Source of the DNA: a virus
Lineage: Duplodnaviria; Heunggongvirae; Uroviricota; Caudoviricetes
Virus record (IMG/VR): IMGVR_UViG_2671180710_000029
Length of the DNA stretch: 10,754 nucleotides
Strand: one strand, 5' to 3'
The notes below the pieces were generated by a model, which did not search any database, was not told where the DNA came from, and saw nothing but the letters and a program-made list of their open reading frames with translations. A program made the position numbers and the translations under genes. This document shows positions 55 to 7,497 of this stretch, in pieces. Numbering within the stretch: position 1 is the first letter of the stretch; each line of letters starts with the position of its first letter.

Positions 55-339
55 TTACTCCCTGACAGGGTTCGTAGGCCACTCAATATCAGGTGCAGTT
101 GATGTATCAACACGGTTCAGCAACACCCAATCTTCAACGAGATGCCACGATGCCTCATCACTGTTGAAAACAGCCACAAAGCCAGCAGGAATATCTGGTG
201 GTGCAATATCGGTACTGTTTGCTGGCAGACCTGTATGAGGCGGAATATATGCGTCACCTTCACCAATAAATTCATTAGTTCCGGCCAGCAGATTATAAAT
301 TTTTATGGTCCGTGCTTGTTCACTCATTCTGAATGCCAT
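55..339 (-). CDS. tfa: Tail fiber assembly protein Tfa-like, short form (94 aa)
   Basis: [27 protein letters not shown]...[23 protein letters not shown] matches the N- and C-terminal segments of lambda Tfa (orf-194) as I recall it. Start ATG (337-339) overlaps the stf stop TAA (339-341) as TAATG. Sits immediately downstream of stf as in lambda. Confidence 0.75.
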
Positions 340-3300
340 TATGCAAGCCTCACAATATAGTTAAATGCGATGTTTTTGACAGTGTTTTCCGCGTTACCAG
401 CAGCGTTAACGGTGATGGTGTGTCCATGTGAGCCAATCGCAACCGAGTGCGTATGAGCACCAATACCGACAGTATGTGCGTGTGCACCTGCAGATGCAGC
501 GGTGCCGCTGACACTATGAGTGTGCGCTCCTGCAGCACTTGTATTCACACTGGCCGCAGACACTACCTTATGTACTGACCCATTTTGTGACCACTGGCTG
601 ACTGCTGATGCGCCTGTGACACTATGAGTATGGTTTCCGGCACTTGCGGCTGTACCGCTCACACTGTGCGTATGCGCCCCGGTGTTATTCGTGGATTTAG
701 TGCCGTAATCAAACGACGATGTGGTTTTCGTCCCCAAATCCGTACTGGATGCGCTGGCGCTGTGGGTGTGCGATTTAATGCCGTCCTGTTCCTGAGACAA
801 TACGGCCCGACCACTGGCAGGTTTGCCCTTAATCGTCCAGCTACGCATATCAGGGATCAGGCCTGACGGATAAGCGGCTGCAAGTTTCGGGTATGCAGAT
901 TTGTCAAAAGTCTGCCCCTGCATCAGGGCATAACCAGACGGAACGGTATCTGATGGCCACGGGATTGGTGCACCGACTGGATAAAACTCTGCAGGAGGAT
1001 GAGCCGAGGTGTAAAGCTGCGCCCACGGCGACCAGTTTGCGTCGGTCGTATCCCGTCGTGAACGAATAAATGCCGGAGCATGAGCACCGCTTGTACCACT
1101 CCAGCCGATGAGTAACTCACCTTCGCCAACGGCTGTCATCCCTTTCAGGTGAATGATATTTCCATACGTTGTTGGATATCCGTTGTTATACACCTCGTAT
1201 AACTCAAGACCTGCTGCCCCCTGCGTATTGTCTGTCAGCGCGGCTACCCGACCTTTTGAAGCCAGATTAACTGATGATACTGCTGTTCCACCTGACGGTA
1301 GCGCCCCGATCTCTGATGCCGTTGGCTTATTTCTGGAGTTATAGTCCCTTCGCCAGCCAGGTGAATAATCTGTTCCGTGATTAATATAGGTAAACAGGGC
1401 GTTGGTTGTTCCGCCACCGCTGGATGTGGTCGGAGTGGTAATGCGGATCGTCATCGCTGACTTTATCCCCATTACTTCAATGACAGCTCCGGCGAGATGA
1501 ATATTACCGCAGCCAGTATCAGTAATGATTTTATTATTGCCATAAGACCAGGAACCCTTGCACATCCAGTATGGATGGTTAAATGCTCCCTGAGAATCCA
1601 GCCACTCGATAAACTGTGCAGTCGTCCAGTTTCCTGTTGTTGTGCTTACTGACCCACCGAAGGCACGGCAGGCACCAATATTTTTCGTAAAGGTGTCTTT
1701 GCCAGGGATATCCGCACCGTTCTGATCTTTCTGCAGACGTTTCTCAGCATTGTCATTGGCTGCTTTTACTGCCTTTGGCGTTGCCGCCAGCGTTTCAGAC
1801 GTGCTGTTGGTCGTGCTGCTTAGTTGGACTATCCCTTTCTGTGCTGTCGTTGCATCCTGTGCTGTGTATTTCCCGTTAGCCAGGTCATACGCGGCCTTAA
1901 CTGCTTTTGGCGTTGCCGCCAGTGACTCGGAAGTGCTGTTGGTCGCACTGCTGAGCTGTACTATCCCCTTTTTCGTCGTGCTCGCATCCTCAAGCGCCAC
2001 GGCGGATGCAATATCCTCTGCCCGTTTTGCCGCTGTCTCAGCGCGCGTTGCTGCAGATTCCGCCGTACTTTTGCTCTGAGCTGCTGCCGTCGCACTACCA
2101 GCTGCCTCTGTCGCCTTTGTGGATGCCGTCGTGGCGCTGCCCTTCGCTGCTGACGCCTGTCTGGTCGCCTCATCTTTTGAAGCAGACGCCGATGATGCCG
2201 ATGACGCCGCCGAACTGGCGGACGATGCCGCTGCCGTTTTTGAGGATTCTGCACGGGTTTCCGACGCTTTCGCGTTCGTTTCGGATGTCTTCGCTGCGGA
2301 AGCTGACCTCGCTGCTGCCGTGGCCTGCTCAGTGGCTTCGCCAGCCTTCGTTGTGGCTGTTGAAGCGGATGATGCGGCGCTTTCTGCCGATTTTCCGGCG
2401 GCGGTGGCACTGGCTGAGGCCTGCCCGGCACTTGTTGACGCGGCACTGGCAGACGACGCAGCCGCTGTTTTTGAGCCTGCCGCAGCTGAGGCGCTCTGTC
2501 CCGCTGCCGTCTCAGAAGACCTGGCGTTCGTCTCGGACGTTTTTGCCGCCTTCGCGGAATTTCCTGCCGCCGTTGCCGAGGAAGCTGCGCTACTGGCGCT
2601 CAAGGATGCGTTCGTTTCTGATGATTTCGCTGCCTCTTTTGAGGCCGCCGCATCCCGGGCTGAGGTGGCAGCTTCTGACGCTTTCGTGATCGCGGTGGAT
2701 GCAGAAGTGGCGGCTGATTGTTCTGACGCTGCGGCATTCGTTTCTGACGTTTTCGCCGCACCGGCACTGGTAGCTGCCACGCTTTTTGAGGACTCTGCAG
2801 CGGCAGCACTTTTTGAGGCTTCAGTGGCCTTTGTTGATGCCGTTCCTGCGCTGGAAGACGCTGACTGAGCCGACGAAGCGGCCTGTCCGGCTGACGTGCT
2901 GGCTGCACGTGCTGAATCTGCAGCATCAGTCGCATGGGTTGCCGCCTCACGGGCAGATGTGCCGGCATCACTGGCTGACTTCTTCGCGGCTGCCGTGTTC
3001 TGTGCCACCACGGACGCGTTACGCGCTACCTCTTCCACCATCAGTTCAAAACGGCGCAGTGCCTCAGGACGGGCATCATCCTCCGTCATGGCACCGAGAA
3101 AATCATTCAGCGTACCGGGTCGGGAATCTTCATACACGGTGATGGTCCCGGCATGTGACGGCGGGAATCCTTCCACCAACAGAATAACGCTGTACTGACC
3201 GTACTCAACGTCCATGCTGTAACGCCCGGCTTCATCCGGATTTTCTGAGGCCAGCGTGTTCACCACCACCGTGGTGCTGTTACGTTTTGCTTTCAGCTGG

Positions 3301-3365
3301 ATTGTGCAGTTCTGTACCGGTTTTCCTGTGCCGTCTTTCAGTACACCTGAAATCTTTACTGCCAT
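339..3365 (-). CDS. stf: Side tail fiber protein Stf (mosaic; ~1008 aa from the ATG at 3365; the track's GTG at 3371 is an alternative start)
   Basis: N-terminus [26 protein letters not shown]... matches lambda Stf. Long Ala/Ser/Thr-rich region with recurring AAKTSETNA-type units. Conserved [15 protein letters not shown](S/T)[10 protein letters not shown] fibre motif present twice. C-terminal GAPIPWPSD...HTHS.../[22 protein letters not shown] His-x-His repeats typical of T4 gp37/lambda Stf distal tips. GGGGTG Shine-Dalgarno-like sequence lies just upstream of the ATG at 3365. Confidence 0.9.
1760..1980 (-). repeat. Imperfect tandem duplication (period 132 bp, 2 copies) inside stf, encoding the [25 protein letters not shown] motif twice
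   Basis: ggcgttgccgccag occurs at 1777-1790 and again at 1909-1922, with similar flanks (gtgctgttggtcg..ctgct..g..actatccc). The protein shows the motif twice, 44 residues apart. Confidence 0.7.
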
Positions 3366-3375
3366 ATTCACCCCA

Positions 3376-3402
3376 CAAAAAAGCCCGCCTGAACCGGCGG
3401 GC
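3376..3402 (-). terminator. Putative rho-independent terminator downstream of lom
   Basis: Minus strand reads GCCCGCC-ggttca-GGCGGGC followed by TTTTTT (plus-strand stem arms 3383-3389 and 3396-3402, A-run 3376-3382). Lies between the lom stop (3430) and the stf start (3365). Confidence 0.6.
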
Positions 3403-3429
3403 TGTCATAACACTGTGTTACCTGGCTAA

Positions 3430-4029
3430 TCAGAACTTATAACCGACACCCATGATGAAACCGTCAGTGCGCCAGTCGCCACTGCCGGAGCCTTCATAAG
3501 CAATATCAATGGCCACGGATTCGGTCGGGTTAAACTGCACGCCAGCTCCCCACGCCAGAGACGTGTTGCTGTGGCGACCGTCATCACTTCCGGTCAGCAC
3601 GTCGTGCGTTTTCCCCTTGTTGTCAGTTACGCGGAGATAATCCCCGGAGAAAGTCGACACACGGCTGTAAGCCACACCCGCCATCGCATACGCGCTGAAC
3701 CATTCATTCACGCGCACAGACGGCCCCACCATCACGCTGAACCAGCGGTTACGAACGGAATCTTCATGCCAGCGGGTATCGCTGTAACGGGTCAGCTGGC
3801 GATTCTTGTCTCCTGCATAGCTGAATGACGTCACCAGCCCCAGTGTGTCCGTAAACTCATAACGGTATTTCACGTTAATCCCGTTCAGATCATCGCTGCC
3901 GGGAACGTTCGTCGAGGCATGAAGATACCCCGCGCTCAGCGTGGACTGATGTTCAGACGCCCATGCAGGCGCACCGGATACGGCCAGACAAATGGCTGCG
4001 GACAAAATGGCGGCATAAAGTTTACGCAT
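3430..4029 (-). CDS. lom: Outer membrane protein Lom (Ail/PagC/OmpX-family 8-strand beta-barrel), 199 aa
   Basis: Matches lambda Lom from memory. N-terminal signal peptide MRKLYAAILSAAICLAVSGAPAWA; alternating aromatic/hydrophobic beta-strand pattern; C-terminal ...GVGYKF with terminal Phe typical of outer-membrane barrels. GAGAGG Shine-Dalgarno-like sequence upstream of the ATG. Confidence 0.9.
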   Translation of the reverse strand: MRKLYAAILSAAICLAVSGAPAWASEHQSTLSAGYLHASTNVPGSDDLNGINVKYRYEFTDTLGLVTSFSYAGDKNRQLTRYSDTRWHEDSVRNRWFSVMVGPSVRVNEWFSAYAMAGVAYSRVSTFSGDYLRVTDNKGKTHDVLTGSDDGRHSNTSLAWGAGVQFNPTESVAIDIAYEGSGSGDWRTDGFIMGVGYKF

Positions 4030-4050: not shown

Positions 4051-4077
4051 AATAAAAAAGGCGTCATTTCTGACGCC
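4051..4077 (-). terminator. Putative rho-independent terminator between J and lom
   Basis: Minus strand reads GGCGTCA-gaaa-TGACGCC followed by TTTTTTATT (plus-strand stem arms 4060-4066 and 4071-4077, A-run 4054-4059). Confidence 0.65.
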
Positions 4078-4095
4078 CGTTATGGGTTATAAAAT

Positions 4096-7497
<3,402 letters not shown>

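Follow-up and report, generated by a model that had tools for sequence, protein, structure and literature searches.

The analysed stretch of DNA (the window, 10,754 nucleotides) contains the end of a late tail operon with the gene order J-lom-stf-tfa, as read from the list of open reading frames and the Pfam match of lom, and identical loci are annotated as gpJ, Ail/Lom, tail protein, and tail fibre assembly protein. The stf gene lies on the minus strand (339..3365) and is an uninterrupted open reading frame of 1008 amino acids, beginning at an ATG at position 3365 and containing no internal stops. The same minus-strand frame can be read from a GTG (339..3371, 1010 amino acids); the RefSeq start for stf in identical chromosomes is the ATG at 3365. 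The upstream neighbour that fixes the synteny is lom (3430..4029, minus strand), which encodes an Ail/Lom outer-membrane protein (PF06316, E 1e-119). A candidate terminator, comprising a hairpin and T-run recognised by consensus match (3382..3403, minus strand), is found between lom and stf, just 5' of the stf ribosome-binding site. On the other side, the gene for the tail fibre assembly chaperone, tfa (55..339, minus strand), shares sequence with the stf stop codon and encodes 94 amino acids instead of 194. The frames of J, lom, K, L, M, I, and stf are all intact in the window, which is 99.99% identical to many genomes. An earlier sequence-only reading of this DNA had identified stf as an unbroken reading frame for a side tail fibre, and the open reading frame, the Pfam and PDB matches, and the synteny bear this out. 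The lengths used there for comparison (774 amino acids for Ur-lambda Stf, and a lambda PaPa gene split into orf-401 and orf-314) agree with the records.

N-terminal domain, shaft, and fibre repeats

Residues 1-101 of Stf (3063..3365, minus strand) comprise the N-terminal tail-attachment (collar) domain and a linker. PF08400 covers residues 1-134 (E 1e-71; 239 bits, cut-off 26.6), and residues 1-94 match the N-terminal domain of lambda Stf (PDB 9e7m_Ta, E 1e-51). In the cryo-EM structure of Ur-lambda, gpStfN residues 1-91 contact gpV and gpM (PMC12617516). The N-terminus had been described as lambda-like, and these matches uphold the family assignment, but the closest relative lies elsewhere. 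Residues 1-101 are 99% identical to StfR from the Rac prophage of Escherichia coli K-12 (b1372, NP_415890.2, 1120 amino acids) and 93% identical to lambda, and the N-terminal 455 residues are closer to StfR (97-99%) than to lambda.

The adjoining shaft (residues 102-455; 2001..3062, minus strand) is evident from composition, periodicity, and identity to StfR, whose shaft is equal in length. It is 97% identical to StfR residues 102-455 and 59% identical to lambda. Alanine, serine, and threonine make up 73% of residues 122-452 (nt 2010-3002) compared to 37% of the remaining protein, confirming the extended Ala/Ser/Thr-rich shaft placed at approximately nt 2010-3000 by the earlier reading. Alanine recurs in residues 102-455 with a period of 3.5 (power 10.6, against 2.1 for the 99th percentile of shuffled sequences) and the heptad register is unbroken. 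Tandem Repeats Finder detected no long-period array in the shaft; the periodicity sits at the level of the protein heptad. The equivalent region of lambda has been described as a coiled coil (PMC12617516), and the shaft here is predicted to form a long proximal coiled coil in α-helical conformation.

Two fibre repeats of the PF03406 family follow, at residues 456-503 (1857..2000, minus strand) and 504-547 (1725..1856, minus strand). The corresponding DNA contains two 107-nt copies (1884-1990 and 1752-1858) that are 132 nt apart and 77% identical, so the duplicated fibre motif noticed from the sequence is genuine. Repeat 2 is an extra copy of 44 amino acids. It falls in a 44-residue alignment gap in StfR, which has a single repeat, and is missing from lambda and from the 964-residue alleles. 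The match in PhiR29_1 is 132 nt shorter, consistent with the absence of repeat 2 from PhiR29. The protein had been noted to be about 230 residues longer than lambda Stf; the figure holds (234 residues), but much of the excess is the standard StfR-type shaft (approximately 98 residues), and the remainder is contributed by the second fibre repeat and a larger centre of Mu/P1 type.

Central modules and distal tip

The centre of the protein had been reported as a domain without recognisable relatives, a statement that did not survive database comparison. Residues 539-722 match the Mu tail fibre S/S' structure (PDB 8ju3, E 5e-68), and residues 548-793 match P1 Sv' in two blocks. Module A (residues 548-690; 1296..1724, minus strand), of Mu S'/P1 Sv' type, is 80% identical to P1 Sv' residues 219-358. 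Module B (residues 691-793; 987..1295, minus strand), of P1 Sv' type, is 62-64% identical to P1 Sv' residues 47-153. The counterpart of module B precedes that of module A in P1 Sv', so the module order is permuted in Stf. No homologue of module B was found among PDB sequences at E <= 10. An AlphaFold2 monomer of residues 548-800, built with 24 homologues, had low overall confidence (mean pLDDT 58.5), which peaked in module A (pLDDT 70-86), and module B was modelled poorly; a Foldseek search with this model returned 8ju3 as the only significant PDB match (E 5e-17). Two other relationships were considered and rejected. Kinship with T4 gp34 was not significant, either for Gp34_trimer (17.9 bits; cut-off 27) or in Foldseek (E ~0.08), and modules A and B share no significant similarity as diverged duplicates, with only a W..Y..P motif at their ends in alignment. 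The Mu and P1 fibres differ from this Stf in having another tip and a U/U' chaperone.

The distal tip is of the T4 gp37 type. In a phmmer search, residues 794-1008 aligned end to end, without large gaps, with chain residues 28-242 of the T4 gp37 tip (gp37 residues 812-1026; PDB 2xgf; collar, iron-stapled needle, and head) at 69% identity (E 1e-86). Residues 794-914 (624..986, minus strand) contain the collar domain (PF07484 at residues 798-844, E 1e-10) and the proximal needle with the first three H-x-H motifs, and are 78% identical to T4 and 93% to StfR. Residues 946-1008 (342..530, minus strand; stop at 339-341) correspond to the returning needle strands with motifs 4-7 and a conserved 15-residue C-terminus, and are 98% identical to StfR, 89% to lambda, and 76% to T4. 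The seven H-x-H motifs (residues 866, 898, 912, 948, 962, 971, and 980) each fall in the same alignment column as one of the seven in T4, and an 11-residue C-terminal sequence is common to both proteins. The T4 needle contains seven iron atoms, coordinated by histidines that are essential (PMC6957217). This substantiates the gp37-like His-x-His tip suggested earlier, although the motifs span nt 420-770, slightly more than the nt ~400-700 proposed; a 15-residue sequence said to occur twice does so, at residues 896-910 (nt 636-680) and 946-960 (nt 486-530). By homology, the tip would be a trimeric, metal-binding needle of gp37 type.

Residues 915-945 (531..623, minus strand), between H-x-H motifs 3 and 4, form the variable head insert, which is the only stretch that cannot be aligned among the tips of the window protein, lambda, StfR, PhiR68_2, and T4. 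Its counterpart in T4 is the receptor-specificity region of gp37 (residues ~932-965; PMC9659904; PMC6957217), and the insert is predicted to be the receptor-contacting part of the tip. It resembles no characterised tip. A 60-residue query (residues 902-961) retrieved six phage records only, five of them at 98% (2H10 twice, PhiR29_1, PhiR29_2, and SPF_0923), and PhiR29_1/2 and 2H10 carry the same insert. The sixth was a T-even phage with a 167-kb genome, vB_EcoM_G2285 (80%). This last match hints that the head insert may be exchanged as a cassette between T-even gp37 and the side fibres of lambdoid phages. Since divergence of the tip is confined to the region that determines receptor specificity in T4, a host range different from that of lambda is plausible, as the sequence-only reading had proposed.

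Truncated tfa and the working of the fibre

Compared to full-length relatives, tfa in the window has lost exactly 300 bp in frame (codons 71-170, with the junction at nt ~130-134); its product retains residues 1-70 and the last 24, and Pfam and PHROG match just the two ends of the gene. There is no intact cognate tfa immediately 3' of stf, which concerns the working of this copy rather than its membership of the Stf family. In other genomes, such as that of strain JNEC-KY174, a full-length Tfa is encoded beside an identical stf. No record of the 94-residue product was found by exact look-up in a 153-billion-gene index, and the 36-nt junction is absent from genome_contigs, viral_contigs, and metagenome_contigs. 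Because these junction and product searches were all negative, they do not distinguish a natural deletion from an assembly error or an edit, and the lesion may have arisen as an artefact when the source sequence was assembled or edited. In characterised Tfa proteins, the N-terminal domain binds the fibre and conserved C-terminal helices trimerise (PMC9608196), and T4 gp37 requires gp38 (PMC6957217), which is about 30% identical to the Tfa here. Since tfa lacks codons 71-170, a lesion found nowhere else, this stf copy probably depends on Tfa supplied in trans by another prophage. The earlier inference of a functional side fibre is therefore weakened by the adjacent deletion, although the stf frame itself is intact.

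Taking these data together, we consider it very probable that the stf of a lambdoid E. coli prophage occupies 339-3365 (minus strand) and encodes a homotrimeric fibre composed of StfR-, Mu-, P1-, and T4-type modules that is probably Tfa-dependent in trans. In the proposed working of this fibre, the N-terminal domain (residues 1-~91) of each homotrimer would dock onto the tail tube and tip, and a shaft of ~350 residues with alanine heptads, in the length class of Rac StfR and ~14 heptads beyond that of lambda, would extend from it as a coiled coil. Beyond the shaft would come the two short fibre repeats, the two Mu S'/P1 Sv'-type modules, and a gp37-type collar followed by a needle in which the seven H-x-H motifs are stacked as rungs, each of which would coordinate one iron ion through six histidines of the trimer. 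The 31-residue head insert at the far tip would contact the receptor, which, by analogy with T4 and lambda, is likely to be an outer-membrane porin or the LPS core. Initial adsorption through such a fibre would be fast and reversible, after which the J tip would bind irreversibly. Folding of the tip would require the downstream chaperone Tfa as an analogue of T4 gp38, and with its fibre gene intact and its tfa shortened, the copy in the window would probably rely on the Tfa of another prophage.

The alternative that survives best, though we judge it distinctly less likely, is that the locus is a decaying relic in which production of the fibre has ceased even though the stf frame is still open, the chaperone gene and perhaps further parts of the prophage being defective, so that the gene is a silent remnant. 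The internal tfa deletion would fit such decay, as would an assembly (L008) in which an identical stf is accompanied by a differently broken tfa (61 amino acids). In the identical chromosomal locus, moreover, an incomplete tfa pseudogene lies 3' of tfa together with genes not belonging to a phage, next to ompT, and the region resembles an old prophage end. Against this, all of the frames from stf and J to lom, K, L, M, and I are intact, and the near-identity of the window to many genomes also argues against decay. Tfa is 95-96% identical among lambda, Rac, and this prophage type, and an E. coli genome contains a median of three stf-like places, which makes supply of Tfa in trans plausible. Just 10.7 kb of the prophage is visible in the window. 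Less likely again is a departure from the preferred reading in one of two respects: the head insert might specify a receptor or allele unlike the OmpC and LPS recognised by lambda and T4, or Tfa lacking residues 71-170 might be a naturally minimised, working chaperone.

It is very improbable that stf lies within a Gin/Cin/Pin-type invertible cassette that switches host range by alternating the fibre C-terminus. Both Mu S' and P1 Sv', which the central modules match, are from invertible segments, and the related phage PhiR68_2 and Rac have a Pin-type recombinase 3' of tfa. However, the window contains no gix/cix/hix-like crossover site, with up to 3 mismatches allowed, and no inverted alternative stf C-terminus, and the identical chromosomal locus has no recombinase gene 3' of tfa. 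These observations largely refute the invertible-segment reading; this stf is not a member of the Mu/P1 invertible fibre system and has only modules in common with it. That the frame is a product of chance or biased composition has a negligible probability: the GC-rich repetitive shaft DNA does yield spurious long frames on the opposite strand (e.g., 2119-2868), but this explanation is already refuted by matches to four Pfam domains (three above curated cut-offs), three strong PDB matches, at least 8000 homologues at E <= 1e-10, and conserved synteny.

Distribution and closest relatives

The identical 1008-residue protein is present in RefSeq (WP_024175316.1), and an exact-sequence look-up across public assemblies matched 723 index blocks. 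Its locus is 99.99% identical to the window. Among 5,426 complete E. coli genomes, 639 contain at least 80% of the stf gene. Near-identical stf alleles also occur in isolated phages (SPF_0923, PhiR29_1/2, and 2H10), with 98.4% protein identity over the full length in SPF_0923; in these phages, as in the WP_024175316.1 locus, tfa is full-length, unlike that of the window. PhiR phages plaque on E. coli. A literature search on the receptors of PhiR, mEp, and SPF_0923 fibres returned only a description of the panel, without Stf characterisation.

Among characterised systems, StfR shares the tip outside the head insert (93-98% identical) and a downstream tfa of the same type (95-96%), but its head insert is different, its centre (residues ~522-875) is unrelated, and its locus has the PinR recombinase downstream, unlike that described here. 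Ur-lambda Stf (N-terminal domain, PDB 9E7M), which binds OmpC, has the same J-lom-stf-tfa order, a similar coiled-coil shaft, and a gp37-type tip that is 84-89% identical outside the head. It differs in its shaft (~100 residues shorter), its single fibre repeat, and the absence of Mu/P1-type central modules, and its tip has eight H-x-H motifs, a 10-residue SFDYGTK duplication, and an unrelated, longer head insert. T4 gp37, which binds OmpC/LPS and is folded by gp38 and gp57A, belongs to the long tail fibres of a myovirus rather than the side fibre of a siphovirus, and its head insert and the rest of the protein outside the tip are unrelated to Stf.

The mosaic make-up of tail fibres across lambda, Mu, P1, P2, and T4 has been in the textbooks since the early 1990s. 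A family of receptor-binding tips common to T4 and lambda has also been described (Magaziner and Salmond 2022; PDB 2XGF). The segments of this protein do differ in their closest relatives, as expected of the mosaic 1008-residue fibre that had been proposed, but all of the modules and the whole protein are already on record. The novelty implied by the sequence-only reading is lost with these full-length, near-identical matches. Stf is an intact but ordinary lambdoid side tail fibre with modules known from Rac/lambda, Mu/P1, and T4, and carries little weight as a discovery when the exact protein is catalogued in hundreds of genomes. The sole unusual item, the clean 300-bp in-frame deletion in tfa, lies outside stf and is a possible sequence artefact. 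The practical value of the gene is as a further natural example of joints between fibre modules, at the fibre repeat, the NGADIP motif, and the W-x-x-x-Y...P module ends, and its head insert is an additional variant usable in engineering the host range of phage or cosmid particles.

The stf locus and its distribution

On its minus strand the window carries the distal half of a lambdoid phage tail operon, for which ORF calling gave the order tape-measure C-terminus, M, L, K, I, J (4096-7494, minus), lom (3430-4029, minus; PF06316, E 1e-119), stf and a short tfa (55-339, minus). The stf reading frame proved intact, as had been read from the sequence alone: it runs from an ATG over 339-3365 (minus), encodes 1008 aa and contains no internal stop codon, with a GTG two codons upstream at 3371. 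Chromosomal prophage loci in many E. coli strains match the entire window at 99.99-100% identity; in them the ORF carries the annotation "phage tail protein" (1008 aa; WP_024175316.1) and starts at the same ATG.

The sequence-only reading held that full-length, near-identical matches to a single characterised Stf would make the protein known rather than mosaic. In sequence terms such matches were found, with the identical protein present across 723 blocks of an index of public assemblies and 98.4% full-length protein identity to Stf of phage SPF_0923. Among 5,426 complete genomes of E. coli, 639 carried at least 80% of stf and 5,172 some part of it. Homologues in a protein search, which bear the name "prophage tail fiber N-terminal domain-containing protein", numbered at least 8000, and the alleles of the plaque-forming PhiR phages are annotated "side tail fiber protein Stf". 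The gene is ordinary, already catalogued and not new. That the tail fibres of lambda, Mu, P1, P2 and T4 are mosaics of one another is long established in the early-1990s literature, and the notes on shared segments within the P1 record itself agree with this.

Two strong hairpins, each an 8-bp stem followed by a T-run and terminator-like by consensus match only, lie between J and lom (4059-4078) and between lom and stf (3382-3403, minus), the latter about 10 nt ahead of the ribosome-binding site of stf. They could insulate lom from the fibre genes; lambda lom is expressed in lysogens. Opposite the shaft region, the plus strand (2006-3198) has several long ORFs, the largest of 249 aa, which are by-products of GC-rich, repetitive Ala/Ser/Thr coding sequence and not genes.

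Domain architecture of Stf

Segment-wise alignment combined with PDB, Pfam and phage searches resolved every part of Stf. The predicted lambda-like N-terminus corresponds to PF08400 (aa 1-134). Within it, the tail-docking N-domain and linker (aa 1-101) are 99% identical to StfR of the K-12 cryptic prophage Rac and 93% identical to lambda, and the N-terminal region matches PDB chain 9e7m_Ta (E 1e-51). In the Ur-lambda virion structure, Stf residues 1-91 touch the tail proteins gpV and gpM (PMC12617516). The shaft (aa 102-455) is equal in length to that of StfR and 97% identical to it; against the lambda shaft, some 100 residues shorter, identity is 59%. The reported enrichment was evident, with Ala, Ser and Thr making up 73% of aa 122-452 (nt 2010-3002) versus 37% elsewhere in Stf. 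Alanine positions follow an exact, unbroken 3.5/7-residue periodicity (power 10.6; the 99th percentile of shuffled sequences was 2.1), a pattern that fits the coiled coil described for lambda. The reference facts used for comparison, a 774-aa Ur-lambda Stf and its division into orf-401 and orf-314 in lambda PaPa, were also accurate.

The duplicated fibre motif consists of two PF03406 repeats (aa 456-503 and 504-547) 44 aa apart, whereas StfR and lambda have one each. The corresponding 107-nt DNA copies (nt 1752-1858 and 1884-1990) are just 77% identical, so the duplication is not recent; this divergence suggests that the second repeat was gained through recombination rather than recent slippage. 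That repeat (1725-1856, minus) is polymorphic: alleles encode 1008 or 964 aa, exactly 44 aa (132 nt) being absent from the shorter ones and from phage PhiR29_1.

The centre, previously considered a domain that could not be placed, resolved into two modules. Module A (aa 548-690) is 80% identical to P1 Sv', and the Mu tail fibre structure S/S' (PDB 8JU3) matches aa 539-722 (E 5e-68). Module B (aa 691-793) is 62-64% identical to P1 Sv' and has no sequence homologue in the PDB. In P1 Sv' (2365-3922 of the P1 record, L012), the modules occur in reverse order relative to the window (987-1724, minus). Modelled with AF2, aa 548-800 reached mediocre confidence (mean pLDDT 58.5; 70-86 in module A), and the model's sole significant PDB fold match was again 8JU3 (E 5e-17). 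Both modules terminate in a similar W-x-x-x-Y-x-S/T-x-x-x-P motif, which is likely a recombination joint.

The distal tip and receptor specificity

The C-terminal residues (aa 794-1008) match the T4 gp37 tip (PDB 2XGF) end to end (E 1e-86, 69% identity) and are assigned to a collar (PF07484, aa 798-844) and needle of that type. The repeated H-x-H motifs number seven, from aa 866 to 982 (nt 420-770), and two copies of [15 protein letters not shown] lie at aa 896-910 and aa 946-960. In an alignment of the tips from the window, SPF_0923, PhiR68_2, lambda, StfR and T4, the seven motifs share columns with the seven of T4; the lambda tip has eight. The T4 needle holds seven iron atoms, and its iron-binding histidines are essential (PMC6957217). 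By homology, the proposed gp37-like metal-binding needle is reasonable.

Residues 915-945, between the third and fourth motifs, were the sole unalignable stretch in this alignment. This head insert is equivalent to T4 region 932-965, which sets OmpC/LPS specificity and, across the more than 200 phages of the published T4/lambda tip family, is the divergent spot (PMC9659904). PhiR68_2, 94% identical overall, differs precisely here. Given divergence at the T4 specificity region, the suggestion of a host range possibly unlike that of lambda is a reasonable one by homology. A 60-residue query around the insert (483-662, minus) matched six phage records and no more: five at 98% (2H10, listed twice, PhiR29_1, PhiR29_2 and SPF_0923) and, at 80% identity, gp37 of the T-even phage vB_EcoM_G2285 (167 kb; MK327933.1, 157391-157570). 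The latter match points to possible tip-cassette exchange between the side fibres of siphoviruses and the long fibres of myoviruses.

The C-terminus of J, the central tip protein (4096-4848, minus), is 63% identical to lambda J across the last 250 aa; the final ~130 residues, the receptor-binding end, are far less lambda-like, and the part before them is nearly identical. The central tip may not use LamB, which would add independently to a non-lambda host range.

Proposed function and the tfa deletion

A mechanism is well supported through homology to solved structures. Three Stf chains would form one fibre, with the N-domains clamping it to the tail and a coiled-coil shaft some 14 heptads longer than that of lambda. 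Mu/P1-type knobs and an iron-stapled β-needle would then display the head insert to a receptor on the cell surface, giving rapid reversible adsorption before J binding, as shown for Ur-lambda and OmpC (PMC12617516). Folding of the T4 gp37-class tip requires the chaperone gp38 (PMC6957217), and by homology a lambda-type tip would require Tfa. Tfa proteins bind the fibre through a variable N-domain and trimerise through conserved C-terminal helices (PMC9608196).

A 194-aa tfa comes after stf at all but one of the identical or near-identical loci examined, and its product shares 95-96% identity with lambda Tfa and with TfaR. Relative to chromosomes otherwise 99.99-100% identical, the window tfa (94 aa) has an exact 300-bp in-frame loss of codons 71-170, with the junction at about nt 130-134 and an adjoining C-to-T change (Arg to Trp). 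The 94-aa product had no record in a 153-billion-gene index, and the junction sequence had no match in three sequence collections. The deletion may be a real lesion, an artefact of assembly or an edit. Were it real, this copy of stf would probably rely on Tfa from another prophage, which is plausible because E. coli genomes have a median of three stf-like places. The exceptional assembly (GCA_000944015.1) carries an identical stf with a different broken tfa of 61 aa (7027-7212 of locus L008), so tfa decay does occur and its loss recurs in this prophage lineage. Because of the tfa lesion, a decaying relic is possible for this particular stf copy. An invertible, host-range-switching cassette was excluded, as there is no crossover site in the window and no invertase at the identical chromosomal locus. 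Homology evidence excluded a chance ORF.

In the identical chromosomes, the prophage end (13973-15085 of locus L003) contains a methyltransferase gene, a partial tfa pseudogene, an alpha/beta hydrolase gene and ompT; this content suggests that the prophage integrated at, or became fused to, the remnant of an older DLP12-like prophage.
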